From an uncultured Anaerovibrio sp. (GTDB lineage: Bacteria > Bacillota > Negativicutes > Selenomonadales > Selenomonadaceae), in assembly GCF_902786545.1 (NCBI RefSeq), contig NZ_CADACU010000001.1: DNA of 64,000 nucleotides; one strand, written 5' to 3'. This document shows, one piece after another, positions 4,757 through 30,405 of the stretch. A program made the position numbers and the translations under genes. Numbering within the stretch: position 1 is the stretch's first letter; every line of letters begins with the position of its first letter. Below the pieces are notes generated by a model. The model ran no database searches and was not told where the DNA came from. It was given only the letters and a program-made list of their open reading frames with translations.

Positions 4757-5698
4757 TCAGTCATTATCATCTGAACGGTACAGGGCATCCAGTTCATATG
4801 GAGTTTCCTGATAAACATAATAATTCAACCAGTTGGTAAACAGGAGATTGGCCACTGAACGCCATCTCATAATCGGGCGCCTGGACGGATCATCATTGGG
4901 ATAATAATTCTTTGGCAAATTAACATCGGCCATACCCGCTGCCATATCCCGGTCGTATTCGGCCTTTAATGATAATGGATCATATTCGGCGTGGCCGGTA
5001 ATGAAAAACTGCCGCTTGGCCAGATTGGCAATCACATAAACTCCGGCCTCACTGTCCGACTCCGCCAGAATATCAAGACAATGAATTTTTTCTATATCCT
5101 CCCGCCGAATCTCCGTGTGCCGGGAATGGGGTACAAAAAATTCATCATCAAAGCCCCGGAAAAGCCGCTCATTTTCCACGCAAAGATGATGCCTATACAC
5201 GCCAAAAATCTTCGGTGCCACATCATACTTCTTTATCCCATAATGATAATACAGTCCTGCCTGCGCCCCCCAGCAAATATGAAAAGTTGAATACACATGG
5301 GACTTGCTCCATTCCATTATCTCCGTTATCTCGTCCCAGTATGTCACCTCCTCAAAAGGCATCCGTTCCACTGGTGCACCGGTAATAATAAAACCATCAT
5401 ATTTCTTATGGCGTACCTCTGCAAATGTTCCATAAAACTCGGTTAAATAATCCATAGATGTATGAGTAGGAACATAGGATTCTGTATATATAAAATCCAC
5501 CTCGACCTGCAAAGGCGTGTTGCCCAACAGCCTCAGCAACTGGGTTTCTGTAGTCTGTTTCATGGGCATCAAATTTAAAATCAAGATTTTTAATGGACGG
5601 ATATCCTGGCTATAGGCCCGATCCGAATCCATCACGAATATATTTTCACCCTCCAGAATTTTCGTTGCCGGAAGGTTATTTGGTATCTTAATTGGCAC
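4757..5698 (-). CDS. metA: Homoserine O-acyltransferase (MetA family)
   Basis: N-terminus [11 protein letters not shown]..., full-length 313 aa, and a [18 protein letters not shown] core typical of MetA. Confidence 0.9.
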
Positions 5699-5726
5699 AA
5701 AATCACCTCAAGGGATATGATATAGC

Positions 5727-6608
5727 TTATTTATTTGTATCCAAGCTATATCTTTTTACCCAGCTTTCATGGTCTCCCTCATAAACTCTGAGTACTTTAA
5801 GAGTCTTCTCACTGTTTGACTCCTTTGCGATGGCAGAATACATGCCATCAGTGGTATCGGTGATATCTTTCCACCCATTATCAGGGGTCCAATTAAGCAC
5901 TCGAATCACCTTTTCTGTATACTGGGGAATGTTTACCGCCTTTTTCTGGAAGACTATCTTAGTGACAGCATCGCTGGCGTTCTTTATCTCCTGCCATTCC
6001 CAGAATATCATATTCTCACCTTTCAGGCGCATGGTAGTGGTATCAGCCATAGCATAAGTTACGCCGCCATCCCGGTTTGACTCCTGCCAAAGGGACAGCC
6101 AGCGGTCATCGGCCTGACGCCGTTCATTTTCTCCCAACCCGAATATCGTATCAACGATAAAGCAGTAAAAGTCCTCATCAAATTCCTGGGAATTCATTTC
6201 TTTAGGACGCAGCGGGCTGTAAGTTTTTTCCCACACCTTTTCATCAGCCTTATTGAAAAATGTTTCATTAACATAGGCCAAAGTCCGGTTCTGAGGATTT
6301 ACCTCCACCTCGGCCACACTATAAGACAAATCACCCGGCTTGATGTCAGTCAAACCATAATTTTCCAGTGTTTCCTTGGCGCCGGCAAAACTATAGTTGG
6401 TTTTGGTCCAGGCACTTATCTGCACTGCCATCCTGCCAAACGACTTAGTCACCTGTACTTTGGCCGGTGCAAAAAATTTGCTGTATTTATCATCAGAGGA
6501 AATCCAGTACCACTCCGCATTATTATTGGCCGCCATGCAGGCTGACATCATCAGCAAAAAACTGCATACACAGACAAATCCAAATATCAATCGGCGTAAC
6601 AATTTCAT
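5727..6608 (-). CDS. Secreted hypothetical protein (about 293 aa)
   Basis: The tracked ORF runs to 6824, but the internal ATG at 6608 gives a classic signal peptide (MKLLRRLIFGFVCVCSFLLMMSACMA). That start also removes the overlap with the divergent gene and its promoter. Confidence 0.6.
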   Translation of the reverse strand: MKLLRRLIFGFVCVCSFLLMMSACMAANNNAEWYWISSDDKYSKFFAPAKVQVTKSFGRMAVQISAWTKTNYSFAGAKETLENYGLTDIKPGDLSYSVAEVEVNPQNRTLAYVNETFFNKADEKVWEKTYSPLRPKEMNSQEFDEDFYCFIVDTIFGLGENERRQADDRWLSLWQESNRDGGVTYAMADTTTMRLKGENMIFWEWQEIKNASDAVTKIVFQKKAVNIPQYTEKVIRVLNWTPDNGWKDITDTTDGMYSAIAKESNSEKTLKVLRVYEGDHESWVKRYSLDTNK

Positions 6609-6714
6609 CACTCCCACAAATAATTTGCAAATCAAAAGTAAGAAACAATTCGTCAACTTATATATTAACATAAAAAGAAGAATATTTACACCTAATAAGG
6701 CAAAAAGTATATCC

Positions 6715-6743
6715 TTGAGCGTAATAACGGTATATGCTACAAT
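6715..6743 (+). promoter_or_regulatory. Sigma-70-type promoter TTGAGC-N17-TACAAT with TG extended -10
   Basis: Hexamers read directly. The AGGAGGA RBS at 6754-6760 precedes the ATG at 6768. Confidence 0.5.
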
Positions 6744-6767
6744 GCCCATATACAGGAGGACTATATT

Positions 6768-7331
6768 ATGACTTACACAAATTTTCAGGTAGGAGAAAAA
6801 TTCCCTCTGCCCATAAAAAACCAAGGTGATGGTGGCATGTTCCAGATAGATGCCAACGGCTGTATGTTTATTCTGCAGTTGAGCCGAACTGATATCATTG
6901 CAGTGGAAGCCTTCCGTACCGGAGCCATGGAGCTGGCCCTATACGAGGAGGACGGGTTGCTGTTTTTCCTCTACAAAATTGATGGAATATTTAAGGACGG
7001 ATGGGGAGATTCACCTTTGGGGCTGCACCTGCTGCCACCGGGTATGAAGCCATGCATTGCTGATTTGGATGACCCGGTTCTACATCTCTATCTGGTGGAT
7101 ACCAATTTACAAATATTGCTGGCCCAGCGTACAGTAAGCCTTACTCCGGAATTCCATCAGCTGCTGCAGAAAAAGGTGCAGGAGCAGCTGGAAAGCAGTT
7201 TATCCCCCGGGGCTTTTGTCAACAAGCTGCAGGACATATGGAAACGAAACACCTCCAAGGACATGAGCGAAAAAGCTCTGGCCAAACAAAAAGTTGAGCT
7301 TGATATCCCGGCCCCACCAACATTAAACTAA
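6768..7331 (+). CDS. Hypothetical protein (187 aa)
   Basis: Good RBS and promoter upstream, terminator downstream. No motif recognised. Confidence 0.55.
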   Translation: MTYTNFQVGEKFPLPIKNQGDGGMFQIDANGCMFILQLSRTDIIAVEAFRTGAMELALYEEDGLLFFLYKIDGIFKDGWGDSPLGLHLLPPGMKPCIADLDDPVLHLYLVDTNLQILLAQRTVSLTPEFHQLLQKKVQEQLESSLSPGAFVNKLQDIWKRNTSKDMSEKALAKQKVELDIPAPPTLN

Positions 7332-7335
7332 AAAA

Positions 7336-7376
7336 GGCAGGAAATAGGATCACAAAATCCTATCTCCTGCCTTTTT
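7336..7376. terminator. Bidirectional rho-independent terminator
   Basis: 15-bp stem GGCAGGAAATAGGAT / ATCCTATCTCCTGCC with one mismatch, flanked by an A-run and a T-run, between convergent genes. Confidence 0.7.
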
Positions 7377-7382
7377 CCTGTT

Positions 7383-8234
7383 TTAATCCAAATCCACCAT
7401 AGTCCGCTGCCGCTTATTAAAGGTTACCCCCTGGGTATATCCATAGCATTTAACATAGTCGATGGCATCACCGATATAACTGCCACAGTCCTCCGGCTTA
7501 TGGGCATCCGAACTGGTAATGATTGGCAATCCGGCCTCCGAGGCCAGCTTCATAAACTTGTAGTATGGGGTTATCTCAGCAATCGGATAACGATACACTG
7601 TCCCGGTATTTACATCCACGCACATATTAGCCTTTTTCAGAGCGGCTATGGCCCGTTTCAGATATGGCGTTGCATCAAAGTCCGGAATCATCCGATACAG
7701 GCGAATATTGTAGGGATGTCCCAACACATCATAGAGGCCACTGGCTACCATATGTTCAATTTCCTGGGTATAAGCCTCATAAATTTCATCCAGGGTGTGA
7801 TTATCCCATTCTGCCTTTATTTCCTCTGAATCATAAGCCCAGCCCCGAATGAAATGAATCGAACCGATGATATAGTCAAAATCATAGCCCTTTAAAATTT
7901 CCGCTACTTGCTCCTGATTTTGGAAATTACATACCTCAATACCGACTTTAGCCGTATATCCGGCTGATTTTAGCTTCTCCATAAATTCAAAATACTCATC
8001 CAATGTATATTTGAACTTATTCTTTTTGAGCCACTGCTGCTGAAACTTTCCCACAAAGGACTCATCCAAGATTAAATCATCATAATACAGCTGTTTGAAT
8101 TCCGGAAAGGTATGGCTATGCTCCGTAATACCGATTTCAGTCAAGCCACGCTTGGCTGCTGCTTCAAAAAAGCCCTTAGCCCAGTCCACATCATAAGAAC
8201 CTTTTTCAAAGTGCATATGATAATCGTATCTCAT
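7383..8234 (-). CDS. PHP-domain histidinol-phosphatase family protein (HisJ/HisK type)
   Basis: YDYHMHF..TEHSH..SIHF..GHP..SSDAH metal-ligand pattern of the PHP family. Start moved to the ATG at 8234, which has a GAGAGGG RBS. Confidence 0.75.
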   Translation of the reverse strand: MRYDYHMHFEKGSYDVDWAKGFFEAAAKRGLTEIGITEHSHTFPEFKQLYYDDLILDESFVGKFQQQWLKKNKFKYTLDEYFEFMEKLKSAGYTAKVGIEVCNFQNQEQVAEILKGYDFDYIIGSIHFIRGWAYDSEEIKAEWDNHTLDEIYEAYTQEIEHMVASGLYDVLGHPYNIRLYRMIPDFDATPYLKRAIAALKKANMCVDVNTGTVYRYPIAEITPYYKFMKLASEAGLPIITSSDAHKPEDCGSYIGDAIDYVKCYGYTQGVTFNKRQRTMVDLD

Positions 8235-12044: not shown

Positions 12045-12122
12045 TGGTGACCCAGGAGGGACTCGAACCCCCGACCCCTTGATTCGTAGTCAAGTACTCT
12101 AATCCAGCTGAGCTACTGAGTC
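12045..12122 (-). tRNA. tRNA-Arg (anticodon ACG), CCA encoded
   Basis: Manual cloverleaf. Acceptor GACTCAG/CTGGGTC, D-arm GCTC..GAGT, anticodon stem CTTGA/TCAAG with loop CTACGAA, T-arm GGGGG-TTCGAGT-CCCTC, discriminator A plus CCA. Close to the E. coli tRNA-Arg(ACG) sequence from memory. Confidence 0.9.
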
Positions 12123-17042: not shown

Positions 17043-17125
17043 GCAACTGTCAACCAGATGGATGTCTATACGGGACAAGGGCTCCAACACAAGCGTACCC
17101 ATTAACCCCGCCTCTGACTTAGTAC
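17043..17125. repeat. Partial second copy of the palindromic element (one arm plus fragments), overlapping the trmB promoter region
   Basis: GCAACTG-N4-CCAGATGGATGTCTATACGGGAC matches copy 1 (GCAACTG-N12-CCAGATGGAGGTCTATAAGGGGAC). CTTAGTAC is also shared. The opposite arm is absent. Confidence 0.5.
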
Positions 17126-17128
17126 AGA

Positions 17129-19105
17129 TTATTTCTTATCAAATCCATACTTTTTAAGATACCGATACAAGGTTACCCGGCTGACATGCAGAAGGTTGGC
17201 CATCCGGCTTACATTGCCCCCGGCGGCCTTCCACGCCTTGACGAAAATATCCTTATCTTCCTTCCACTTGTTATCAGGCTTAACATCCCCCATCAGATTG
17301 ATGTCCTCCGGACGAATGACTCCATCAGCGGTCTTAAAGAAGGCTACCTCAATGACCCCCTGCAGTTGCTTTATATTCCCCGGCCAATCGTAGTTCATCA
17401 ACAGCTCCACGGTTTCCGGGGCAATCTCCTTGACCGCCATCTGGTGCTGGCTGGCCAATTCATTGACAATATGGTTGGCCAAATCCCGGATATCCTCTCT
17501 ACGGTTTCTAAGAGATGGAATCCTTATCACACTGCGGGAGATAATATCATATAACTCACGGGAAAACAAGCCCCTTTCCGTCAGGCGCTTCAAATCGCTG
17601 TCACAAGCCCCAATAATCCGCACATCAATGGAGCGTTCCACATTTTCCCCCACCCGGTTTGACTGGCTGGTATTAAGGGCTGCCGCCAATTCCACCGCGA
17701 TATTCCGTGGCATTTTCTCGATTTCATCAATAAACAGGGTACCGCCGGAAGCCAGTTCCAGCTTGCCTGGATGACTGATATCCGTATTCAGGGCCACCCC
17801 AAACAATTCCTGTTCCAGGATTTCCGGGGTAGTATCACCGCAATGAATAGTAATCAGTGGTCCTGCCGCCCGTGGGCTGGCCTGATGTATACCATGGGCC
17901 ATGCGCTGCTTACCGGTTCCTGATTCACCCTGAATAAGCATATGATGCTTGTTCCGGGCAATTCGCAGGGCCTTGTCCTTGATGGAATTAAAATTGGTGC
18001 CACCGCTGACCAACGAATTGAGGCTGTATTTCGCCGTAAAACCAGCCGCATGGGCCACCAATGTCCGCAAATCTTCAATCGGCATGGAGACGGCTACTAC
18101 ACTATGTACCGTATCATCAGCATTATAATCCAATGGCACTACTGTAGTAATGTCCTCGTATGTCTTGGCCTGAGTAATCCAGGTCACTTCTTTATTGTAG
18201 GATGGAACTCCCTTGAACCCCCGATAAATAGGAGTATGACGATAGTTCATAATAACATCATTAAGATTGGTTTTCAGCTCATCATTGCCGTTTTTCTGAG
18301 CACCAATCCCCATGAGACGGCTCATACCCAGCTTATTGGCATAGGCCACCTCATCCCCAGCCATTACATGGTACACCGCAAACGGTGTAGCATCCAGGAT
18401 AGCTTCCTGGGCTTTTATCCGAGTGTATTGGTGCAAATATCCTTCCAATGACTGTTTAATAGTCAGCAGCATGGCAATAATAGCATCCTGAGGCATATCC
18501 GACTGCTCCACTGCCACCAAAGTAATAATATAGGAAATCTCATTGTCTACCACTACCGGAGCCGAGCAGGCATCACTTTGCTGACACTCCTTGGCCCACA
18601 TCTCCGGACCAAACAACCAAAATGGGGACTTATGTTCATAGGTAATACTTATACTGGATGTACCAATGTCCTCGATGCCAACCCGTACACCTTCGATTTC
18701 GCCTGGCGTCATCTGATAAAAAGGCATGGAATAGCTTTTTAGAACAGTGCAGTTGGCATCCAGCAAAAGCAGGCTGATATTATACTTTTGGAAAAACTCC
18801 CTAACATTAACACTGATATTTTCCAAATAATCAATAGCCGGCTTATTCTGCTTCTGAATCTCCTTCAGTTCCTCCACTGACAGGCGGTTAGCCGTTGACA
18901 TCTTTTCATAATCCACCCTTAGGCTGGCACTTTTGGCCCAGGATTTGGCTACCCAAGGGTGCACATTGGGGTCAATCTCTCCCTGTTCAATAAATCTATT
19001 ATAGTACGCTTCCAGCTTCTGTCTGCTCCGTCGTTCCCTAATCATCAATGCGGCCCTCTCTTTCCCGTAATCAAATTTATTCCTTCCCAAAATTTCACAT
19101 ATCAT
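17129..19105 (-). CDS. AAA+ enhancer-binding-type transcriptional regulator (AcoR-like N-terminus, Fis-type HTH) lacking the GAFTGA loop
   Basis: Walker A GESGTGK, GGTLFIDEI, DWPGNIKQL, and a C-terminal HTH (ANLLHVSRVTLYRYLKK). The sequence between ELFG and GGTLF reads VALNTDISHPGKLELAS. Confidence 0.85.
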   Translation of the reverse strand: MICEILGRNKFDYGKERAALMIRERRSRQKLEAYYNRFIEQGEIDPNVHPWVAKSWAKSASLRVDYEKMSTANRLSVEELKEIQKQNKPAIDYLENISVNVREFFQKYNISLLLLDANCTVLKSYSMPFYQMTPGEIEGVRVGIEDIGTSSISITYEHKSPFWLFGPEMWAKECQQSDACSAPVVVDNEISYIITLVAVEQSDMPQDAIIAMLLTIKQSLEGYLHQYTRIKAQEAILDATPFAVYHVMAGDEVAYANKLGMSRLMGIGAQKNGNDELKTNLNDVIMNYRHTPIYRGFKGVPSYNKEVTWITQAKTYEDITTVVPLDYNADDTVHSVVAVSMPIEDLRTLVAHAAGFTAKYSLNSLVSGGTNFNSIKDKALRIARNKHHMLIQGESGTGKQRMAHGIHQASPRAAGPLITIHCGDTTPEILEQELFGVALNTDISHPGKLELASGGTLFIDEIEKMPRNIAVELAAALNTSQSNRVGENVERSIDVRIIGACDSDLKRLTERGLFSRELYDIISRSVIRIPSLRNRREDIRDLANHIVNELASQHQMAVKEIAPETVELLMNYDWPGNIKQLQGVIEVAFFKTADGVIRPEDINLMGDVKPDNKWKEDKDIFVKAWKAAGGNVSRMANLLHVSRVTLYRYLKKYGFDKK

Positions 19106-19998: not shown

Positions 19999-20571
19999 AT
20001 GAAGAAACAATCTATACGAATCCTATTATTGGTTTTAACCCTTGTTTGCGCCATGGCCTCGGTTGCTACAGCCGCAGCCTTGCCCCGGGTGGCCTTGATT
20101 TACACCAATAACGCCAACACTACCTACGATACAGAACTGGACAGCTGTGTACTGGATAATCTCAACAAGACCCTATCCCAGCATTTCGAAGTTGTTAAAA
20201 ATGACACAGTGGTGCAAAAACTGACAGATATGGGTATGACCGATCTTTCCATGGCAGAACGCCGCGATATCCTAGATGCCGTTGCCGGCGAGGAATGTAC
20301 CTATGTTATTTGTCTTTCCCTGGAGCCGTTTCAACGCAAGGAGAAAATCACCTTCTTCACCCAGGGGATTGAAATGATTGCCACCGTTCCGTGCAAAATT
20401 ATCGATGTTAAAAACGACCGTTATATCTATAACGGTAAGTTCGTAGAAAAGCAATCGGACAGCACCTGGATTGGCTCTGTTGGCAACAAGTCGGTGGCGC
20501 TCCAGGCCCTCCAGAAAGTAAACAAGGGCCTCAACAAAATTTTAAATGAAAAAATGCTTGTGGCTAAATAA
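19999..20571 (+). CDS. Secreted hypothetical protein (190 aa)
   Basis: AGGAGGA RBS, signal peptide MKKQSIRILLLVLTLVCAMASVATA, terminator downstream. Confidence 0.6.
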   Translation: MKKQSIRILLLVLTLVCAMASVATAAALPRVALIYTNNANTTYDTELDSCVLDNLNKTLSQHFEVVKNDTVVQKLTDMGMTDLSMAERRDILDAVAGEECTYVICLSLEPFQRKEKITFFTQGIEMIATVPCKIIDVKNDRYIYNGKFVEKQSDSTWIGSVGNKSVALQALQKVNKGLNKILNEKMLVAK

Positions 20572-20679: not shown

Positions 20680-22182
20680 TTATGGAATCCGACGGTCTTC
20701 CCCGTCGGTTATTACTTTCTTCCAACCATAGTACTGGGCATACATTATGTTATGGCTGCCCTCCGGCCGTGGCTCCAAATCCGAGCCCCAGGCCAAAATA
20801 TCCGTATTCCAGGTAACACAAGTCCATACTTCACAAACTTCATCCGCCAGCGGCCATACATCAATCTGATGCACTACCACCAGCTCCTTTTCCCTATTGG
20901 CATTTATATAGTCGATGCGGCTCATCCATTGCTGACGCACATCCCACTCCACCTTGCAGGTGAAAGCTGCCGTAACCAGTAACAAGGCCATCCCAATCAC
21001 TGTAACAGTCTGCCATATAGGCCTGCATTTCTGCCAAACGGCTTGATTGTTCAATAGCTCCTTCAAGGCAGACAGAGAGGCAATTATCACCGCCACGGTG
21101 GAAAAAAAGCCCGCCCGGGCTGGTGCTACTGGAACAAACAGCATAATAATCATAACGGATATGGCTCCCCCCAGCATAGCAGCCTGAAATCTGGTGGTCC
21201 GGTTCCAGCGTTGCCCAACCGGAAGCTGCCAGATATAAAAGCCAATAAGCCCCAACAAAGGAATCCATAACTTGGTGACAGCCAAAAAACACTCAAAGAA
21301 GTTTATTTGAAACATTAACGGGGTCCAATACATATCAGCTGGGAGACCCGGATTATATTCATACAATCTCTGCAGCTCTAACCGGACCATTTCCCCCGGA
21401 GCCTGGGTCAGCATCAATCCCCCAATGCACAGGAATAGGAATCCTACTATCATCCATAACTGCAGCTGCCTCTGCTGGCGAAAATAAAGCAGGGCCAATA
21501 AAGCAATAAACCCTGTGGCCGCGGCGCCAGTTTCCACGGACCAGCCGGCACACAAGCCGCTTATCGCCATAAGAGGAACTGCCCAGCGAGGTGGTTTTTG
21601 CCAAAAATCAGGCTGCCAATATTTTGCCGCAAAGGGCATCAGAAACAGAAATTCCAACAGCCCCATCCATAAAAATACACAGCTGCCACACATCCATAAA
21701 GTGGTCAAAAAAGGATCCGGCAGCAGGAACCAAAAACTCAGCACAAGCCATAGCATATAAGTACGGTTCATGGACCGCAGGGAAAGTCCGGTGCCCAGGC
21801 GGAAGGCCAGTAACATCAGTCCGCCAAATACCAGTGTATTAAACACATTAAATAGTTCCTTCCCCTGCCAGGCAAACAACTGGGTCAGCCCAATTCCCAG
21901 AATCCGTCCCCCCCAGGTAAAATAATGTGACCACTGACTGATGATGATATCACCAAAGGAGGTAATACGCTCTCTTGGCCCTACTCCATCCAGCAGATTG
22001 CCCCGATCGGCTCCATCCCAGATAAAAGCGTAAGGAATATCATCTGACACCATAGGCAGCATAAAATTTCTCACTAAAAACAATCCTATAAAAAGCAAAA
22101 ATATCATCTGCCAAGAAAACAGTTTGTTGATTGATTGTTCGCCATTTTTCACTAGTTGTCTGTCCCCCCGTATTTCTCCCAA
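20680..22182 (-). CDS. GT-C-like polytopic membrane protein, paralog 2 (putative glycosyltransferase)
   Basis: About 11-13 TM segments. SDDIPYAF acidic motif directly after TM1. The shared WxHYFxWGGR block and overall colinearity with the upstream paralog are visible by eye. Confidence 0.55.
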   Translation of the reverse strand: MGEIRGDRQLVKNGEQSINKLFSWQMIFLLFIGLFLVRNFMLPMVSDDIPYAFIWDGADRGNLLDGVGPRERITSFGDIIISQWSHYFTWGGRILGIGLTQLFAWQGKELFNVFNTLVFGGLMLLAFRLGTGLSLRSMNRTYMLWLVLSFWFLLPDPFLTTLWMCGSCVFLWMGLLEFLFLMPFAAKYWQPDFWQKPPRWAVPLMAISGLCAGWSVETGAAATGFIALLALLYFRQQRQLQLWMIVGFLFLCIGGLMLTQAPGEMVRLELQRLYEYNPGLPADMYWTPLMFQINFFECFLAVTKLWIPLLGLIGFYIWQLPVGQRWNRTTRFQAAMLGGAISVMIIMLFVPVAPARAGFFSTVAVIIASLSALKELLNNQAVWQKCRPIWQTVTVIGMALLLVTAAFTCKVEWDVRQQWMSRIDYINANREKELVVVHQIDVWPLADEVCEVWTCVTWNTDILAWGSDLEPRPEGSHNIMYAQYYGWKKVITDGEDRRIP

Positions 22183-23684
22183 TCGAACTCCCGGTCAATC
22201 CGGATGCTTTTTAAACCATAGTATTGGGCAAATATATTGGAACGGTTATCCGTCGGCTTATATTCAAGGTCTGCCCCATAAATCAGGTGATAGATGGTCA
22301 GGGAACGCGGTCCTAACCATTCATCCAGATTGTCGGGTATATATAAGGCAGAAACCACAATTTCATCATCCTGACGATGCTCATTCACATAAACCTTCCG
22401 ATCCTGCCACTGCTGGGCGTAAGAATTTTCTACATACAAGGCCCCCACAAAGGATAAAACCACATAAACAAAGGCTATAATGCCGGTTCCCAGTGCCAGT
22501 CTCCGCCAAAGCAAGGAATTCTGCAATACATCCCGCAAATAAGGAACACATTCCTTTAAGGCCGCCACCGAAGCTATGGTCAAAAACATAGTGGAGTGAA
22601 AGCCGGTATGGACCTTAAATTCCGGGGAAAACATCATCAGAACCAGTATTTCCAACCCAGCCAGAAGGAAGGCTATTATATAGGATTTATCACCACGCTT
22701 TTTTTCTCTCTGCATAAAATATAGCAGCAAAGGTAAAAACAAAAAGGCTTCCCATAAAATAACCGGCAAAAAACCTTCCGTGAAATTTCGGTAAAACATA
22801 GCAGGGGTAAAGAGCTGTTGGGCAGGCAATACATAATCCGCCTCGTACTCCAGCATATATTCCTCCCGCATTATGGAGCCCGGTGCCAGAATCAACAGCA
22901 TACAGCCAATAACAGCACCGCCAACTCCGGCCAGCATCCATGGACTTAATTTTCCCTCCCGATGGCGGATGGCTATCGAAGCCATTCCCAACAGAGTTAT
23001 GGTAACTAGGCTACCACCTTCCTGGGACCAGCCAGCCAGCAATCCCAACAGTGCCATCAGCAGCCATGCCCACTTGGGCCAATTCCTGCCAAACTCCCTG
23101 TTTCGATACGCCAGGGCATAGGGCAACAATAAACCACATTCCCACAAGCCAGTCCACATATATACACAGGTCCCCGTCATCCAAATCATGGTGGTTATGT
23201 AGTCCAATACACCAAAATTTAGTCCAATAATCACCCACAAAAAACATCCCTTGGCTTTTGCCGGTGATATTATTTTTCCCATAGCCAACCAATATAGAAC
23301 CAGCATCAACAGCAAATACACCAGGGTGTTGCACAGAGCAAAACCAGCTTTTTCCTGCCAGGCAAAAAATTGAATAATCAGCATGGAAAATGTACGACCG
23401 CCCCAAGAAAAATAATGGTTCCACTGGGATATGACAATATCCCCAAGGCTTTCAAGCCGTTGCCGTGGTCCGATGTCATCCAATAAATTCCCGCCGTGCT
23501 CCGAATTCCAGATAAAGGCATAGGCATAGTCATCACCACTCATGGGCATTAGCTGACTTCGCCAGAAAAATATCAGCCCAAAAATAAGCAATATGGCCTG
23601 CCATGGCAATTTATTCCATATTTTCTCTATACCACTTATCATATATAAGCACCTCAACCCACAAATAGAAAAGCTGCATTTCAT
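22152..23684 (-). CDS. GT-C-like polytopic membrane protein, paralog 1 (putative glycosyltransferase)
   Basis: SGDDYAYAF motif after TM1 and a QWNHYFSWGGR block. ATGA overlap with the RND stop; an alternative start is the ATG at 23642. Confidence 0.55.
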   Translation of the reverse strand: MKCSFSICGLRCLYMISGIEKIWNKLPWQAILLIFGLIFFWRSQLMPMSGDDYAYAFIWNSEHGGNLLDDIGPRQRLESLGDIVISQWNHYFSWGGRTFSMLIIQFFAWQEKAGFALCNTLVYLLLMLVLYWLAMGKIISPAKAKGCFLWVIIGLNFGVLDYITTMIWMTGTCVYMWTGLWECGLLLPYALAYRNREFGRNWPKWAWLLMALLGLLAGWSQEGGSLVTITLLGMASIAIRHREGKLSPWMLAGVGGAVIGCMLLILAPGSIMREEYMLEYEADYVLPAQQLFTPAMFYRNFTEGFLPVILWEAFLFLPLLLYFMQREKKRGDKSYIIAFLLAGLEILVLMMFSPEFKVHTGFHSTMFLTIASVAALKECVPYLRDVLQNSLLWRRLALGTGIIAFVYVVLSFVGALYVENSYAQQWQDRKVYVNEHRQDDEIVVSALYIPDNLDEWLGPRSLTIYHLIYGADLEYKPTDNRSNIFAQYYGLKSIRIDREFDWEKYGGTDN

Positions 23685-26600
23685 TCAGCAGCTTTTCCTT
23701 GGCGATTTCCCTCATATGTCCGGCTAATCAGTATGAACAGCAGTGGAATAACAAATACACCCAAAACAGTACCAACGGTCATGCCGCTTACTACAGCGAC
23801 TCCCATACTGCACCGGGATACACTGCCGGCCCCATCAGCAAAGGCTAATGGCAGGCAGCCAACTACAAAGGCAAAAGAGGTCATAATTATCGGTCTAAAC
23901 CGCAATTTAGCCGCAACCATTACCGCCCTTAACGGAGTCATTCCATTATCCACCCGTTCTTTGGCATACTCCACAATTAGTATGGCATTTTTAACTGTCA
24001 GCCCTACCATCAAAAGGATACCAATCTGAACGAATATACTTACCGGGATATCCGTTAACACCATTCCCAGCAATGCGCCACCAATACCCAATGGCACCGA
24101 CAGCAACACGGCCACCGGCAAGCTCCAGGACTCATACAGCGCCACCAGACACAGGAAAACAAATAATATACCCAAAGCCAAAATGTACACCACATCCTGC
24201 TGAGCCCGTTTTTCCTGCTGACTGTCCTTGGACCAGGCCAAACGATAACCCGTCCCTACTACCTTATTGGCAGCCTCTTCAATGGCCTCCATTGCCTCGC
24301 CGGAAGAATATCCATCAGCAGCGGTAACTGTCACCTGAAAACTCCGCACACCGTTATACCGGCTGATATAGGCCGGACCAACCCCCTTGTTGGATTGTAC
24401 CAGACTATTTATCGGTACCATCACTCCGTCTGCACTGCGGACATACAAATACCGCAAATCCGTTTCAGTGGCCCTATAGCCTTGATCAGCCTGCAATACC
24501 GTCTTGTACACCTGACCGTAGCGATTAAAATCATTTACTTCCTGACCACCTAGAAGCACTTCCAGGGTAGAATATATATCCGCCAGGTTCACATTCAGCT
24601 CCTTGGCCCGGTCCTCATTGACGGTAAAATCAATATAAGGCGTATTTATAGAAAAGCCAATATCCACCTCGTCCAGCTCTTCCCGACTTTTTGCTTCTCG
24701 ATACAGGGCCAAGGCCAGGTCACTAAGCTCCTGATCCGTATGACCGGTAATATCCATTACTTGCAGAGAAATGTCCCGGGAAATGAACGGGGCCACCACC
24801 AGCCCATGTGCCTCTGGTATAGACTGTTGGACTGCTTCATTGGCCGATGCAACAATATCTTCTGTATTAGCCCCCAACTCCCTGCGTTCGTCCCAATCCT
24901 TCATGGCCACAAACATTATTCCTGCACTGGACTTGGTAGTATCACTCAATAGATCCGCCCCAGTAACACCTACAATATTGGCCAAAGCATCATTTTGCAG
25001 CAAGGCTTCGGTCAGACGGTTGAGGGAATCAGCCGTACGGTTCATAGAGGTTCCTTCCGGCAGATTAACCCCAACCATATAGTACCCCTGATCCTCGCCA
25101 GGGATAAATTCAGTTGGCAACAGCCGATAAACAACGACAATTAACGCCGTCAGTACCGCCAATCCGGTCAATATCATACCGGTGCGTCGGATACACCAGC
25201 CCAAACCCTTTAAATATCTTTGCTGACAAGACCGGAAAAAAGACTGAAATCGACTTAACAAACGGTTATTATCTTGCTGTACACTCAATGATGGCAAAAT
25301 AAGCACACAAAGTGCCGGTGTAAGGGACAACGCCACTATTGCCGAGATACCCATGGATACGGCTATAGTCAAGGCAAACTGACGATACAAGATTCCCGTC
25401 ATTCCCTCAAAAAAAGCCACCGGCAAAAATACAGCCAACAAAACAAAAGCTATGGCTATAACCGGCTTTTGCACAATGCCCAAAGCCGCCATGGTAGCTT
25501 TCTTGATATCCTGTTCCCCCCGTTCCTGCTCCTGCATAACGCTTTCAACCACTACGATAGCATCATCTACCACCAGACCAATGGCCAAAATCAAGGCAAA
25601 CAGTGTAAGAAGATTTAGAGTAAAGCCCAGTAGCCTAAAGGCAATAAAGGTGGCTATAAGCGATACCGGTATAGTCAAAATGGAAATAATTGTCGCTCCA
25701 CGGTTCTGCAAAAATATATACATGATTATCATAACCATGATAATCGCTTCAATAAAGGTATACGATACCTCATGCATGGATTCAGAAATATACTTCGTCC
25801 GGTCTACTACTATTTTTAATTCCATATCCGGCGGGAAAGACTGCTTCGCCGTGTCCAAAATTTCCCGCACTTTAGTGATAGACTCCAACGCATTGGCGTT
25901 ATCCGCCAGAGAAATGCCATAGGCCGCGGCCGGCTTGCCATCAACGAAGGACAGATAACGGGTATCCTTGGCGCCTTCACTTATCCGCGCCACATCGCTC
26001 AAGCGGGTAATAGCGCCATTTTCCGACTTTAACACTATTTTCGCAAAATCTTCCGGGGTCTGCTTAGTGTTCATTACCCGGCCAATCAACTGCTTTTCCT
26101 GAATAGACGGCGAAGGCGATTTCCCCAAAGAGCCTACTGCTGGTCGGCTGTTTTGCTCCTTAATAGCGCCAGTAACATCGTTTACAGCCAATCCCCGTAC
26201 AGCCAACTTATCCGGCTGCAGCCAGATACGCATAGCGTAATCCTCCGAGTATTCGTCCACACTGCCTACACCGGATACCCGCTTTATCTGATCCAGAAAA
26301 TACGCTTTGGCGTAATTTTGCAGATAAACACTGTCATAGGTTCCATTAGGTGAACACAAAGCCATAACAAAAATCGTGTCCTTAGTACTGCGGCTAACCT
26401 GAATCCCAGATTCCTGAACCTCTTGAGGCAATCGTGAAAGAATCGTCTGCAGGCGATTCTGAACATTCACCGTAGCAATATCGCCAGCAATACCATAATC
26501 AAAGGTGATGCTCAACTGATAGCTGCCGGAAGAATCCGAATAAGAGCTGAGGTTATCTATCCCCTCTATGCCTCTTATTTCATCTTCAATAATTTTGGCC

Positions 26601-26782
26601 ACAGTATCCTGCAACACTTGGGCATCCGCCCCGGGATACTCAGTGGTAACATTGACCGTAGGCTGATTCATATTAGGATATTCCTCTACAGGCAGCTGCA
26701 CTGCCGCAAGTATTCCCAGCAATGTCAGCAAAATAGCCCCTACTACAGCCTGTAGCGGATGTTTAATAAAATATTGAGCCAA
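23681..26782 (-). CDS. RND efflux permease (AcrB/HAE1-like, 1033 aa)
   Basis: Typical N-terminus FIKHPLQAVVGAILLTLLGILAAVQLPVEEYP and a 12-TM, two-large-loop layout. TTG start 7 nt after a GGGGGA RBS. Confidence 0.85.
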   Translation of the reverse strand: MAQYFIKHPLQAVVGAILLTLLGILAAVQLPVEEYPNMNQPTVNVTTEYPGADAQVLQDTVAKIIEDEIRGIEGIDNLSSYSDSSGSYQLSITFDYGIAGDIATVNVQNRLQTILSRLPQEVQESGIQVSRSTKDTIFVMALCSPNGTYDSVYLQNYAKAYFLDQIKRVSGVGSVDEYSEDYAMRIWLQPDKLAVRGLAVNDVTGAIKEQNSRPAVGSLGKSPSPSIQEKQLIGRVMNTKQTPEDFAKIVLKSENGAITRLSDVARISEGAKDTRYLSFVDGKPAAAYGISLADNANALESITKVREILDTAKQSFPPDMELKIVVDRTKYISESMHEVSYTFIEAIIMVMIIMYIFLQNRGATIISILTIPVSLIATFIAFRLLGFTLNLLTLFALILAIGLVVDDAIVVVESVMQEQERGEQDIKKATMAALGIVQKPVIAIAFVLLAVFLPVAFFEGMTGILYRQFALTIAVSMGISAIVALSLTPALCVLILPSLSVQQDNNRLLSRFQSFFRSCQQRYLKGLGWCIRRTGMILTGLAVLTALIVVVYRLLPTEFIPGEDQGYYMVGVNLPEGTSMNRTADSLNRLTEALLQNDALANIVGVTGADLLSDTTKSSAGIMFVAMKDWDERRELGANTEDIVASANEAVQQSIPEAHGLVVAPFISRDISLQVMDITGHTDQELSDLALALYREAKSREELDEVDIGFSINTPYIDFTVNEDRAKELNVNLADIYSTLEVLLGGQEVNDFNRYGQVYKTVLQADQGYRATETDLRYLYVRSADGVMVPINSLVQSNKGVGPAYISRYNGVRSFQVTVTAADGYSSGEAMEAIEEAANKVVGTGYRLAWSKDSQQEKRAQQDVVYILALGILFVFLCLVALYESWSLPVAVLLSVPLGIGGALLGMVLTDIPVSIFVQIGILLMVGLTVKNAILIVEYAKERVDNGMTPLRAVMVAAKLRFRPIIMTSFAFVVGCLPLAFADGAGSVSRCSMGVAVVSGMTVGTVLGVFVIPLLFILISRTYEGNRQGKAAE

Positions 26783-26851: not shown

Positions 26852-28588
26852 TCAATCAATCTCCAACATAAATCTGTTTTCATCCCCGGCCGACAGATAC
26901 CGTCGCTTCGGCAAATCAGCCGTAATCGACTCGATAAAGTGCTCCCGCCAGGAAAACTCCCCCTGCTGTACTACAGCAATAATATCATAAGGCGGGGCAT
27001 TATCCCGCACAGACATGATTATTGCCTCAGCTGGGTCACTGCTCAAAAGAAAGGATATTTCCAATTGAAAAACATTCCCCTCAGCCCGTTCCACCGCATG
27101 CATTCCTATCTCTTCCACCAGCAATCGCAGGCGTATTATTTTGGCCGCAGATACTCCCAGTTTCTGCAGGTCCTGGGCTACCTTGACAGACAGATCCATC
27201 ACTTCATCCATAACGCTATTGATATCGTAGGACAGCTGGCGATTCGTCCGTGCCTTGTCCATCAACAGCAGATTGCGGCCATGATGTCGGAGCTTGACCA
27301 CAGCCAGGTTAATACCGTAAGCTGCCACAAAGGCACCACCGATTCCAAGCCACATGCCTTCTATACCATACCACTCCCCCAGTAGCATACCTGCCGTGGG
27401 CAGGACCAGCAACAGCATGGTTTTTACCAGCAATCCCTGACTCCAGTGCTTTATATAAATATAATAATTGCTGTACATAAGGGTAATACCCAAAAACACC
27501 GTAAAAATCAAAAAACATCGCAGGGACCGGGTTGCCTCCACTGCAATAGATTTCTCAGCAACACCAAATATATATGGCAAAATTGGTGCACCTATAATTC
27601 CTACAACGGATACCAGCAGGCTAATGGCAATGGTTGCGGCAATGCCCAGCCGCATGGTCTTTTTAATGCACAGAAGATTTCCCTCCGCGTGATACTGACA
27701 AACCATTGGTTGCAGGCAATCCACCACCCCGGTATACAGGGCAATCACCAGCACCAAAACATTGGTGATTACCGTTACAACAATAATATGGCTTTCACCC
27801 CAACGGGCAATCACATAGGTGGACAGTATCACCGGAAGTACAGATAAGTAAAGGGTATCTATCGAATGATAAAAGCTATAGGTAAGTCCCCGAAATATTT
27901 GGCGAAAATCCCACCACCAGCTGAACTTCAGACGGCTTTTATCTGAAAGCAAAAAACGGCATTGCATAAAGCAAGAGATCAAAGTACCAATAACGGTAGC
28001 CAGACCAATCCCCATAACTCCCAGCTCATGGCACAGTACAACATCCAAGATAACATTAACCACCATGGCAACTACCGATGCCATAGCACAAATCTGTTCT
28101 TCTCCCTCTTGTACCAAAAATGTATATATAAAAATATTCAGAAACACAACCGGTGGAAGCCATTTTATGGCACTGTAATAAGCCAGAGCATAGGCCATCA
28201 GCTCCGGCGATATTTTCCAAAAGGCCAATATTTTTTCCTGAAAAGTCCCGAGGAGCACAACTAGACCTATCCCTAGCCCCAGAGATAATATTATGCCCTG
28301 GCTGAAAAATTGGCTCACTGCAATCCGATCGTCCTGCCCCTGAGCATAGGCAGCCATCATTCCCAGACCGTCAGCTATCATATAACTGATAAAAAACAAC
28401 ATGGGTAACAATGGAAATACCAGGGACATTGCGGCTACAGCCTCACCGCAAATCATCTGCCCTGCCACAACATTATCAATCAATACAAGTACATATGATA
28501 TCGTCATGGCCACCATTGACGCCATAAAAACTGACCGAAAACGGGTCGATACAACCGTTTTTTTCCCCAACTCAGTCAAAAATTTCAT
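26852..28588 (-). CDS. MATE-family transporter with about 144-aa C-terminal cytoplasmic extension
   Basis: 12 TM with MATE-like N-terminal pattern (IDNVVAGQ..GEAVAAMSLVFPL). The extra soluble tail spans aa 435-578. ATGA overlap with the upstream gene. Confidence 0.75.
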   Translation of the reverse strand: MKFLTELGKKTVVSTRFRSVFMASMVAMTISYVLVLIDNVVAGQMICGEAVAAMSLVFPLLPMLFFISYMIADGLGMMAAYAQGQDDRIAVSQFFSQGIILSLGLGIGLVVLLGTFQEKILAFWKISPELMAYALAYYSAIKWLPPVVFLNIFIYTFLVQEGEEQICAMASVVAMVVNVILDVVLCHELGVMGIGLATVIGTLISCFMQCRFLLSDKSRLKFSWWWDFRQIFRGLTYSFYHSIDTLYLSVLPVILSTYVIARWGESHIIVVTVITNVLVLVIALYTGVVDCLQPMVCQYHAEGNLLCIKKTMRLGIAATIAISLLVSVVGIIGAPILPYIFGVAEKSIAVEATRSLRCFLIFTVFLGITLMYSNYYIYIKHWSQGLLVKTMLLLVLPTAGMLLGEWYGIEGMWLGIGGAFVAAYGINLAVVKLRHHGRNLLLMDKARTNRQLSYDINSVMDEVMDLSVKVAQDLQKLGVSAAKIIRLRLLVEEIGMHAVERAEGNVFQLEISFLLSSDPAEAIIMSVRDNAPPYDIIAVVQQGEFSWREHFIESITADLPKRRYLSAGDENRFMLEID

Positions 28589-30186
28589 GCAAGCAGCTCC
28601 AATACTGATTTATCCGCTTCCTGTAGCCCCTTCAGCATTTCATCCACCAACTCGGACAAATAGCTCATTTTCCCTTCTGAATACCGACTGGCATCATATT
28701 CTATCTTCATACGGTAAGTACCATCGGCTTCAGCCACCACATGAATATCCAAGGAATTTTCCACCGCTGAAGCTTTGTTTTGCGGCAACTCCTGCAACAG
28801 GGCCATAGTACCACAAAGCGGAAAATCTCCACCGGCATTCCCCATCAAATTGCCTTTTTGTAAAATAAAGGTTGCACAGTCATCCTCCAGTCCTTCAGTA
28901 TACACCGTATCAAGACTGTCACGATACTGAAAGCCCTCGGCCACCTTTTTATCCAAATCCTCAATCAATTCCTGTACAGAAATATCGTTATGAAAATCAT
29001 ACCGTATTGGCATCTGAACAAGCATTAGGCCCATCAGTCGCATTTCCGCCCTGGTGGTACGGCCATTATGTACATAACTCATAATAGCCTCCCGACTGCC
29101 GGCCGACTTGGCTATAGCCAACATCACCGCAGCCATCAAAAAGGTATGCTCCGGATATTTTGTTTCCGCAAAAAAACTCTTCTGGATATTCTGCAGTTGT
29201 CTGAAATGGGCGTTAAATTTCCAGGACCCTTCATGTTTATCACTAGGTGGCAAATGCTTTTTTTCATCAAAGCCCTTCAGCATTTCCCGCCAATAGGCTT
29301 CCCCTACTGCATTCCTCGGCCGTCCGCATTCCTGCAATATATAGTCAGCATAGCTAATATCATTCTGCTTTATCGGTCTTCCCTTATAACGGAGATCCAG
29401 CTCACGGAAAAATAGCATAGCCGTAGCCACACCATCCATTATTACATGATAAAAATCCAAATACATATATTTCCCGGATGGGGTAATAATCAGATATATA
29501 CGAAATAAAGGCCGGTCAATAATTTGATATGGGCGCTTCAATTCCAGCTTTCGCTTTTCAAATTCATCCTCAGACAATGACTCAATCCGCACCTTGGACA
29601 AACTTCCATCAAAACGCTGGCATATTTCTCCGGTCTCCGGGTGGAATAATATCCGGCAACGGAAAATGTCGTGCGCCGACAGAGTGTCATTTATAGCCCC
29701 AGCCAGGCGTTCCATATCCAGGGAATCATCCAGTTTAGCCAGTCCGCCTTCATTCATCATAGTTGAGTTTGCCTTTTGAAAATGGGTATCCATCATCCAA
29801 CGCTGAATTGCCCGAAGAGGATAAAAGCCCGTCATACTGTCTGACACGGCACCATCTCCCACTTCCGCACTGGTATTGACAATCTCCACAAAGTGATTAA
29901 ATCCGGTCATATCAAATACATCTGCCACACTGGACTGCGGATTGACTACCCGAAATTTTATATTTTCCCTATCAGCATGTTTTTTGGCCATAAGAATAGC
30001 ACGAAGGCCCGCCGATGACATATATTCCAGGCGTGAAAAATCCACATCCAGCCTGGATACCTTCGTAGCAAATTCTTCAATACTGTGATTAAAGGCATCT
30101 ACCGTTGTGGCATCAAGCCGTCCATCCAGTTCCAGCACCAATACCCCGGCCGATATATCCTTCCTCATATTTATTTTAAGACTCAT
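28585..30186 (-). CDS. STAS domain fused to an NRPS-type condensation / HHxxxDG acyltransferase domain
   Basis: The N-terminal 100 aa have the anti-sigma-antagonist pattern (LELDGRLDATT ... DFSRLEYMSSAGLRAIL ... VFDMTGF). Then come YPLRAIQRWMM (C1-like) and FYHVIMDG (C3 motif, nt 29431-29451). Start set to the ATG at 30186, 9-10 nt after GGAAGGG. Confidence 0.75.
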   Translation of the reverse strand: MSLKINMRKDISAGVLVLELDGRLDATTVDAFNHSIEEFATKVSRLDVDFSRLEYMSSAGLRAILMAKKHADRENIKFRVVNPQSSVADVFDMTGFNHFVEIVNTSAEVGDGAVSDSMTGFYPLRAIQRWMMDTHFQKANSTMMNEGGLAKLDDSLDMERLAGAINDTLSAHDIFRCRILFHPETGEICQRFDGSLSKVRIESLSEDEFEKRKLELKRPYQIIDRPLFRIYLIITPSGKYMYLDFYHVIMDGVATAMLFFRELDLRYKGRPIKQNDISYADYILQECGRPRNAVGEAYWREMLKGFDEKKHLPPSDKHEGSWKFNAHFRQLQNIQKSFFAETKYPEHTFLMAAVMLAIAKSAGSREAIMSYVHNGRTTRAEMRLMGLMLVQMPIRYDFHNDISVQELIEDLDKKVAEGFQYRDSLDTVYTEGLEDDCATFILQKGNLMGNAGGDFPLCGTMALLQELPQNKASAVENSLDIHVVAEADGTYRMKIEYDASRYSEGKMSYLSELVDEMLKGLQEADKSVLELLA

Positions 30187-30335
30187 ATAAAGCATCCCTT
30201 CCCATGTATAAGGTAACTCACTATTTCTTATCTCTAATAAAATTTTACCAAAAAAAGAAAAATTTCTCAGTAGAATTTAAAATTATTTCTCTTATTATCC
30301 TTAAATTTAGGAACAAATGCAAGGAAAAGTATTTC

Positions 30336-30371
30336 AAAAAAATGTACGGCCCGGGCTTATGGCCCAGGCCG
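30336..30371 (-). terminator. Rho-independent terminator of the atp operon
   Basis: CGGCCUGGGCC / GCCCGGGCCG stem containing a U-G wobble that pairs only on the minus strand, followed by the T-rich tail TACATTTTTTT. Confidence 0.75.
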
Positions 30372-30405
30372 TCTGATTGTACAATAGAAAATTTAATTAT
30401 GTTTT

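Follow-up and report, generated by a model that had tools for sequence, protein, structure and literature searches.

A STAS-condensation domain protein encoded with a MATE exporter that carries a predicted RsbW/SpoIIAB-like tail in Anaerovibrio and related anaerobes

Partner switching and the Anaerovibrio locus

Partner switching is a textbook mechanism of sigma-factor control, and its direct action on enzymes has been shown only recently. The present study concerns a two-gene unit in a 64-kb stretch of DNA from an uncultured Anaerovibrio sp. (contig NZ_CADACU010000001.1; the whole stretch is referred to below as the window). The first gene encodes a STAS domain of the anti-sigma-antagonist type fused to a condensation (C) domain of the kind found in nonribosomal peptide synthetases (NRPS); the second encodes a MATE transporter whose C-terminal tail is predicted to have the RsbW/SpoIIAB (HATPase_c_2) fold. 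As in the Bacillus modules SpoIIAA-SpoIIAB-SpoIIE and RsbV-RsbW-RsbU/P, there is a STAS domain with a serine at the phosphorylation site and a putative partner of the HATPase_c_2 fold, and related clusters also encode PP2C phosphatases of the SpoIIE family and canonical kinases. Unlike in the Bacillus modules, the antagonist is fused to an NRPS C enzyme, the RsbW-like domain is situated at the C-terminus of a MATE transporter and has neither the N-box Asn nor an intact G1 box nor the ATP lid, and no associated sigma-factor gene was found.

In two described systems, Ser/Thr phosphorylation set by an RsbW-type kinase and a PP2C phosphatase determines the function of an enzyme and not the activity of a sigma factor. 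The Anabaena protein All4160 is a STAS-glycosyltransferase that works with a phosphatase, HenR, and a kinase, Alr3423 (PMC13555669); in the SiaABCD system of P. aeruginosa (PDB 6KKO) the switch acts on SiaD. All4160 shares with the present protein the fusion of STAS to a biosynthetic enzyme. Here, in contrast to both systems, the enzyme is a C domain, the RsbW-like partner forms part of an exporter and is probably non-catalytic, and the predicted output is the coupling of an enzyme to a transporter rather than a simple on/off switch.

Precedents for the coupling itself come from other families. VibH is a free-standing C domain whose amine acceptor is norspermidine, and the mycobacterial pairs PapA5/PpsE-MmpL7 and PapA1/2-MmpL8 are transporter-coupled transferases. 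The protein described here resembles these in being a stand-alone transferase of the C fold with a genomic, and probably also a functional, link to MATE and RND exporters, but a STAS/RsbW pair as the coupling device is not known from any of them. The SLC26/SulP transporters bear a C-terminal STAS domain (reviewed in PMC8256260). They have in common with the present transporter a domain of the partner-switch family that serves, or would serve, for protein contacts at the cytoplasmic face; the arrangement is inverted, however, in that the RsbW-like half is on the transporter, which belongs to the MATE/MOP family and not to SLC26, and the STAS half is on the soluble enzyme.

The cluster mru0066-0071 of the rumen archaeon M. 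ruminantium M1 comprises an NRPS gene flanked by genes for serine phosphatases, an anti-sigma antagonist and MatE, and these separate genes were read as regulators of NRPS expression and export (Leahy et al. 2010, PMC2812497). The gene set is that of the type-I clusters described below, and the organism is likewise from the rumen, but neither a STAS-C nor a MATE-RsbW fusion was reported by Leahy et al. The searchable literature contained no relevant pairing of STAS with a condensation domain, or of STAS with NRPS and anti-sigma. A preliminary description of the locus, made from its sequence, had regarded the architecture as undescribed, and this holds for the searchable literature; databases annotate the fusions automatically. 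Partner-switch control of enzymes is already known from All4160 and SiaABCD; what is new is that both halves are fused, one to a C-domain enzyme and the other, degenerate, half to a MATE exporter.

The STAS-condensation protein and the MATE tail

The N-terminal domain of the fusion protein matched Pfam STAS (PF01740) over residues 12-111 (E 1.5e-18, 67 bits; cutoff 22.6), Pfam STAS_2 (E 3e-14) and NCBIfam TIGR00377, 'anti-sigma factor antagonist' (71.3 bits; cutoff 53.45), and the secondary structure of its AlphaFold2 (AF2) model follows the beta-beta-alpha-beta-alpha-beta-alpha-beta order of SpoIIAA. The earlier STAS assignment is borne out by these scores and by the modelled fold. The motif quoted in support of that assignment, EYMSSAGLRAIL, is present: Ser61, within YMSSAGLR, aligns with the phosphoserine of DSSGLG. 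It is invariant in an alignment (A1) of 26 STAS-C homologues that are 43-96% identical, and it opens helix alpha2 (residues 61-76) in the AF2 model. S61, G63 and R65 are all invariant down to approximately 40% identity. Residue numbers for this protein (Ser61, His250 and domain bounds) are counted from the start codon at 30195.

The remainder of the protein matched Pfam Condensation (PF00668) over residues 122-524 (E 5.9e-39, 134.5 bits; cutoff 30.6). Sequence matches in the PDB were to the C domains of BacC, PvdL, Txo and TycC, and a Foldseek search with the AF2 model of the C-domain body retrieved the NRPS C domains of Txo2, TycC, SrfA-C and RzmA (E 4e-22). Both the C1-like motif YPLRAIQRWMM and FYHVIMDG are present. 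The designation of this region as an HHxxxDG condensation domain agrees with the fold, the profile hidden Markov model (HMM) and the catalytic His, Asp and Gly, with the one difference that in A1 the first His is replaced by a nearly invariant Tyr, giving YHxxxDG; the second, catalytic, His is kept. The domain is complete, with its catalytic His intact, and in sequence and model it resembles ordinary elongation or starter C domains. By HMM assignment and structure prediction alike, then, the two domains are supported. The linker of approximately 12 residues between them is disordered in the AF2 model of the whole protein, the overall confidence of which is moderate (pLDDT 76, pTM 0.65); for these two reasons, no conclusion was drawn as to docking of the STAS domain on its own C domain.

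More than 100 listed protein clusters, all from anaerobes of the rumen and gut, combine STAS with Condensation at 97-100% coverage, and the C protein bears a STAS domain in 48 of the 85 typed loci introduced below. The same architecture is thus present in other genomes, and conservation of the full-length fusion on this scale rules out a frameshift between two genes, which had been raised as a possible source of error. With regard to the start of the gene, a Shine-Dalgarno sequence, GGGAAGGG, at 30196-30203 lies 9 nt ahead of the ATG at 30186 and abuts that at 30195, and the homologues in A1 begin at the equivalent of Met4. The start is therefore probably at 30186, and the span of 28585-30186 given in the preliminary description is likely to be that of the true gene.

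The two genes of the unit are directly coupled, as the ATG of the MATE gene (26852..28588, minus strand) overlaps the STAS-C stop codon in the sequence ATGA (28585-28588). The transporter matched Pfam MatE (PF01554) in two stretches (E 5e-24, 85.2 bits) and TIGR00797 at 99.5 bits, under the cutoff of 147, and is therefore a divergent member of the MATE family; some of its homologues match MurJ (PF03023) as well. The hydropathy profile has twelve merged peaks and the N-terminus is rich in Lys and Arg, for which reasons the C-terminus would lie in the cytoplasm.

Sequence searches of the PDB with the tail and with tail profiles yielded nothing significant (RsbW, 6m36, at E 0.9, and spurious matches to an acyl carrier protein (ACP) and VP4), so that a search by fold was needed, and a word-indexed homologue search with the tail alone gave 2 matches only. 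The AF2 model of the window tail has a pLDDT of 92.8 and a pTM of 0.86. With this model, the top 21 Foldseek matches in the PDB were all to RsbW, SpoIIAB, UsfX, the RsbW domain of Rv1364c or SiaB (best E 1e-6; TM-scores about 0.6-0.73), the best being RsbV-RsbW and SpoIIAA-SpoIIAB complexes. According to the model, the tail is a Bergerat (GHKL) alpha/beta sandwich of the RsbW/SpoIIAB type, and since all of the matches are to kinases that partner STAS proteins, the exporter bears the fold of the natural partner of the enzyme's STAS domain. The presence of that fold at the end of the coupled downstream MATE protein gives strong and independent support to the earlier proposal of a transferase governed by a partner-switch-like contact, which the PP2C, STAS and kinase genes of related clusters, described below, also support.

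Tails of this kind form a family. Pfam HATPase_c_2 (PF13581) matched 11 of 16 window-type tails (best E 5e-6) and 12 of 13 tails of a second MATE lineage, that of the type-I clusters (best E 4.8e-10); the tail in locus L001 scored 35.4 bits over nearly the whole profile, against a gathering score of 27.4. Window-type and type-I tails are homologous to each other (hhalign probability 98%, E 2e-13). A tail profile gave 277 matches at E <= 0.001 among 1.84 billion representative proteins, and the full-length members of the family are almost all MATE fusions of approximately 570 aa. Automated naming at JGI already describes tailed MATE proteins as 'Na+-driven multidrug efflux pump/anti-sigma regulatory factor (Ser/Thr protein kinase)'. 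Tail residues Q11, S13, R61, E70, R88, D129 and E130 are invariant down to approximately 40% identity. Identity between the two MATE lineages is only about 18-20%, both in the transmembrane (TM) core and in the tail, and between the STAS-C proteins that partner them it is about 52% in the C domain and about 35% in STAS; the exporter-plus-tail unit is far more diverged, or exchanged, than the STAS-C enzyme.

The conservation of these residues bears on whether STAS and the degenerate tail might be decaying remnants that have no current function in the window organism. The degeneracy of the ATP boxes, the absence of a kinase or phosphatase from the window and the existence of STAS-less and tail-less variants would all fit such a history. 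Against it, both domains are full length and have many invariant polar residues over a range down to approximately 40% identity, and the tail model is a very confident one; decay is accordingly regarded as highly improbable. Coordinates of the features of the locus are collected in Table 1.

Table 1. Features of the STAS-C/MATE locus and its surroundings in the window
Feature	Position	Strand	Details
STAS-condensation fusion gene	28585..30186	-	533 aa from Met4; mechanical open reading frame (ORF) 28585..30195, 536 aa
STAS domain, anti-sigma-antagonist type	29863..30162	-	residues 12-111; Pfam STAS, TIGR00377, AF2 secondary structure
Ser61 codon	30013..30015	-	position of the phosphorylatable Ser of SpoIIAA/RsbV; N-terminus of helix alpha2
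Linker between STAS and C domain	29836..29871	-	residues 109-120; pLDDT <50 (AF2); sequence and length variable in A1
NRPS condensation domain	28624..29832	-	residues 122-524; Pfam Condensation, PDB sequence matches, Foldseek
Active-site motif YHVIMDG (variant HHxxxDG)	29431..29451	-	His250, Asp254 and Gly255 invariant in A1
MATE transporter core	27269..28588	-	12 TM; Pfam MatE, TIGR00797, hydropathy
MATE C-terminal tail, predicted RsbW/SpoIIAB fold (HATPase_c_2) with degenerate ATP-binding boxes	26855..27268	-	residues 441-578 (138 residues)
AcrB-type RND transporter gene	23681..26782	-	69 nt downstream of the MATE gene; Pfam ACR_tran E 5e-292, secondary MMPL match
DUF6056 / GT_STM0557_N genes, two in tandem	20680-22182, 22152-23684	-	Pfam DUF6056 E 1e-97, 2e-108
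Intrinsic terminator after atpC	30346..30372	-	11-bp stem with 9 G-C pairs, then T-run
Promoter-like site, extended -10	30242..30270	-	CTGAGA-17-TAAAAT, TG before; consensus match only

Related loci, the proposed tether and its alternatives

A scan of one genome per species gave 80 loci, almost all of them from rumen or gut anaerobes. The closest were from Anaerovibrio (68-83% identity), followed by Selenomonas, Schwartzia, Succiniclasticum, Acidaminococcaceae, Quinella, Fretibacterium, Lachnospiraceae and Oribacterium. The typed set (n=85) consists of the window and 84 fetched loci, drawn from the scan and from five loci retrieved before it; it includes three duplicate copies, and its locus counts are not phylogenetically independent. 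Four layouts were distinguished. Type I comprises a dCache-HAMP-SpoIIE protein (PP2C), an optional STAS protein, STAS-C, an NRPS module of adenylation, thiolation and condensation domains (A-T-C) and the tailed MATE, with, in some loci, a further STAS protein, a kinase and a second SpoIIE. Type II, that of the window, comprises STAS-C and the tailed MATE, often with an AcrB-type RND transporter and two DUF6056 proteins, and is without A-T-C. Type III has STAS-less C paralogues and a MATE with a shorter tail, and type IV, from Lachnospiraceae, has STAS-C, A-T-C and a tail-less MATE.

A tailed MATE was found within 6 kb in 41 of the 48 loci whose C protein bears STAS. SpoIIE-type PP2C genes occurred in 25 of those 48 loci as against 1 of the 37 in which the C protein is without STAS, and A-T-C modules in 25/48 as against 0/37. 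The stand-alone STAS proteins of related clusters carry the same Y-x-S-S-A-G-[LI]-R loop as the fused domains, so that fused and free STAS alike could be recognised by one set of enzymes and by one and the same tail.

The tail motifs were registered by alignment to SpoIIAB (sequence as in PDB 1TIL) and to canonical kinases from the same clusters; hhalign comparisons of tail profiles with the single SpoIIAB sequence reached probabilities of 8-37% over the beta-strand and G1 region only, and served for motif registration alone. The G1 box of SpoIIAB, LTVRDEGVGIPD, corresponds to MSVRDNAPPYDI in the window tail and to LHFRDDGEEFDP in type-I tails, i.e. to DNAPP or DDGEE instead of DxGxG. The N-box helix of the tails reads VEEIGMHAVERA or LEEICG (EEIGMH or EEICG), with no Asn at the position expected from E-x-x-x-N, and in the model of the window-type tail the two helices between which the ATP lid of SpoIIAB is situated are only approximately 5 residues apart. 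Since the tails have neither the N-box Asn nor an intact G1 box, and those of the window type have no ATP lid either, the alignment indicates that the MATE tails are probably docking pseudokinases. M. tuberculosis UsfX, a non-phosphorylating anti-sigma factor of the same fold, would be a precedent.

The same motifs bear on the converse possibility, namely that the tail is a SpoIIAB-like serine kinase which phosphorylates Ser61 and so turns the C enzyme on and off allosterically, with PP2C reversing the modification. Its fold, the invariance of Ser61 and the co-occurrence of PP2C phosphatases with STAS-bearing C proteins would be as expected of such a kinase, as would the conservation of tail residues E53 and D89, the counterparts in the alignment of the catalytic Glu and of the Asp that binds adenine, and the retention of G-x-G in the lid region of some type-I tails (e.g. 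RGIGLH in L001). The altered N-box and G1 sequences and the shortened window-type lid are difficult to reconcile with catalysis, however, and some of these clusters have genes for canonical kinases apart from the tail. Stand-alone RsbW-like kinases of 144 aa with N-box EEILVN and G2 box PGGYGIF were found in loci L023, L025, L027 and L033, the tails of which are without a canonical N-box or G2. For these reasons an active kinase is considered unlikely.

Each of those four loci has a second complete partner-switch module downstream of the tailed MATE. The modules consist of a STAS protein of 111 aa, the 144-aa kinase, in which the N and G2 boxes are canonical, and a SpoIIE-type phosphatase of approximately 740 aa (in L023, at 17045-17830 on the plus strand, with SpoIIE from 17901).

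The data suggest that a partner-switching module has been rewired to couple the synthesis of a product to its export. STAS-C and the tailed MATE would form a two-gene unit, in which the halves of a partner switch have become fused to a biosynthetic enzyme and an exporter. The STAS domain, on its flexible linker, would bind the RsbW/SpoIIAB-like tail as an anti-sigma antagonist binds its anti-sigma kinase, and the C enzyme would be held at the cytoplasmic mouth of the pump, the amide or ester product being made where it is exported and thereby channelled; alternatively, enzyme and pump may gate each other. The tail would act as a docking pseudokinase and not as a kinase, and any regulation would be exerted at Ser61, which is invariant. 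The dCache-HAMP-SpoIIE PP2C of related clusters, together with a separate RsbW-type kinase, may set the phosphorylation state and so switch docking, with stand-alone STAS proteins that have the same phospho-loop competing for the tail. As no kinase or phosphatase is encoded within the 64-kb window, the tether there would be constitutive or controlled in trans by unlinked genes. The reading favoured here, with moderate confidence, is one in which contact between STAS and the tail tethers the C enzyme to its MATE exporter at the cytoplasmic face. The data establish which domains and folds are present, that the genes are coupled, and how far they are conserved and co-occur; binding, phospho-control, channelling and the product are inferred.

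A number of observations weigh against this reading. The pseudokinase assignment is based on motif alignment, and the window tail itself matched HATPase_c_2 at E 0.005, below the gathering score. In 17 clusters the C protein is without STAS and the MATE nevertheless keeps its tail, which may therefore have another ligand or bind free STAS. Conversely, three clusters from Lachnospiraceae combine a STAS-bearing C protein with a tail-less MATE, and no local partner-switch genes (RsbW-like, PP2C or kinase) were found in them. Mirror-tree partial correlations were non-discriminating (STAS-tail given C, 0.42, versus C-tail given STAS, 0.41). Within the 64-kb window, tblastn and an A-domain HMM detected no SpoIIE/PP2C, free STAS, A-T-C, potBCD or RsbW-like kinase, and there is no A or T domain (carrier protein).

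The mirror-tree comparison favoured STAS within the window type only, and it was rejected as proof of STAS-tail co-evolution, being confounded by shared operon history. The three tail-less MATE proteins (L059, L067 and L078, from Lachnospiraceae/Oribacterium), which represent monoderm versions of the system, are 441-454 aa in length. In L078, the gene next after that for MATE encodes a carboxyltransferase (514 aa); L067 has a gene of the same size (not scanned) at that position, and also has genes for a TupA-like ATP-grasp protein and an amino-acid permease upstream.

The existence of tailed MATEs without STAS-C, and of STAS-C without tails, would also be expected if STAS docked a carrier protein or a nucleotide, the tail having an unrelated role and the adjacency of the two being coincidental. 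The STAS domain of E. coli YchM/DauA has reportedly been crystallised bound to ACP, and in window-type clusters, which have no dedicated T domain, an ACP donor is plausible. The STAS domain found here, however, is of the SpoIIAA/RsbV antagonist subfamily and not of the SulP type; STAS-C co-occurs with PP2C phosphatases; and in 41 loci STAS adjoins a domain that is structurally closest to cognate STAS partners. A different ligand is therefore judged improbable.

Somewhat less improbable, but still quite unlikely in our estimation, is a transcriptional output, in which the MATE tail would sequester a sigma factor and STAS-C would release it, e.g. as feedback from substrate or export. Structures of SpoIIAB with sigma-F and of M. 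tuberculosis UsfX with SigF are among the fold matches of the tail, sequestration is the classical role of the family, and the idea is close to the reading given by Leahy et al. to the unfused M. ruminantium genes. In opposition to this, no sigma-factor gene was found among the gene clusters conserved across the 85 typed loci, although such a negative amounts to no more than absence of evidence; members of the tail family occur almost exclusively in fusion with MATE; and fusion of the antagonist to an enzyme with intact catalytic residues is hard to fit to a purely transcriptional output.

Product, neighbouring genes and significance

Type-I clusters supply an A-T-C module, and as the window-type clusters are without one, their acyl donor would come from elsewhere, for example from general metabolism, as acyl-CoA or acyl-ACP, or from an unlinked A-T protein. 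As to the acceptor, homologues of potA-potB-potC-potD directly follow the STAS-less C gene in type-III loci (L045-L077), being transcribed from the same strand and separated by 0-90 nt. They are homologues of the genes for a spermidine/putrescine ABC importer; examples are situated at 2908-3996 in L055, 8240-9301 in L061 and 14061-14885 in L077, there is an overlap in L068, and the other flanking genes in type-III loci are housekeeping genes. The adjacency of the pot genes hints at a polyamine acceptor for the C-domain family, as in VibH, but conserved synteny among related genomes could explain it instead.

The genes that follow the two-gene unit in the window bear on the destination of the product. 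The gene order from 30186 to 20680, on the minus strand, is STAS-C, MATE-tail, AcrB, DUF6056, DUF6056, and the DUF6056 genes overlap AcrB by 4 nt and each other by 31 nt; they are probably in the same operon as STAS-C. DUF6056 is a GtrC-like polytopic glycosyltransferase or membrane protein (GT_STM0557_N), with a weak PHROG match to a GtrB/C fusion; STM0557-0559 is a gtr operon. It occurs in 18 of the 85 typed loci, across layouts, positions and orientations; a search for relatives of solved structure found none, and literature on it is essentially nil. The association of AcrB with the tailed MATE recurs in Anaerovibrio and Selenomonas loci, and no adaptor (MFP) or outer-membrane-factor gene is adjacent to the AcrB gene of the window. 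The recurrence of DUF6056 and the adaptor-less RND pump hint at a product that is moved out of the cytoplasm or becomes part of the envelope in this diderm Firmicute, and not at a free secreted metabolite.

An adaptor-less AcrB is also found in L012 (3864-6995), and the S. caprae copy is preceded by divergently oriented genes. A pump of the HAE1 type without an adaptor is unusual and is reminiscent of the adaptor-less MmpL lipid exporters. In L004 (7296-17870) and L041, three tandem STAS-less C paralogues are accompanied by a tailed MATE, two DUF6056 genes, a GT2 glycosyltransferase and a protein of the metallo-beta-lactamase fold, which is another link of the C/MATE pair to genes of glycan type.

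A more specific scheme can be offered tentatively, although we consider it more likely to be wrong than right in its entirety. A dCache-PP2C that senses an extracellular ligand would dephosphorylate STAS, the enzyme would then dock on the pseudokinase tail, and product would be formed only at the pump; the product of the window operon would not be a secreted antibiotic but an acylated or aminoacylated envelope component, possibly containing a polyamine or linked to a polyprenyl carrier. If true, this would be a pathway of a new class, in which components of NRPS and partner-switch systems serve to modify the cell surface. In view of the polyamine lead, the cadaverine-peptidoglycan reaction of Selenomonas was also considered as the function of the enzyme. 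That reaction joins a free carboxylate to an amine, whereas C domains need a thioester donor, and since no supporting paper was found either, this candidate was not adopted.

Among the Anaerovibrio relatives, the STAS-C/MATE-tail pair is constant and its surroundings vary; in L011 the pair follows the atp operon, as it does in the window, where the terminator after atpC parts the atp operon from that of STAS-C. In L008 (Anaerovibrio lipolyticus LB2005), a SpoIIE-type gene is located approximately 2 kb upstream of a window-like operon and a gene for an ANL adenylating enzyme approximately 1.4 kb downstream (5626-7881 and 20836-21602); both genes are absent from the window. Just past the operon, the window has a gene for a sigma-54-dependent activator of 658 aa (17129-19105, minus strand), whose N-terminal 370 residues have no Pfam match, and a divergent ORF of 190 aa (19999-20571, plus strand) with no match in Pfam or NCBIfam. 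Rfam, applied at the gathering threshold to the whole window, identified no leader riboswitch or other RNA element, its sole match being a tRNA (12048-12122, minus strand).

Should STAS and the tail prove to bind each other, the C protein would be the first NRPS-type enzyme known to be recruited to an efflux pump by a dedicated and potentially phospho-switchable adaptor pair. Such recruitment would provide a molecular answer to the question of how the synthesis of a natural product is coupled to its export, so that self-intoxication is avoided, and would supply a portable tethering module for pathway engineering. It would also assign a role to approximately 280 MATE proteins (representatives at 50% identity) with unexplained tails. 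Finally, the findings suggest that some uncharacterised product, or modification of the envelope, is widely shared among the dominant anaerobes of the rumen (Selenomonas, Anaerovibrio, Succiniclasticum and Quinella), organisms in which small-molecule ecology is bound up with fermentation and methane output.

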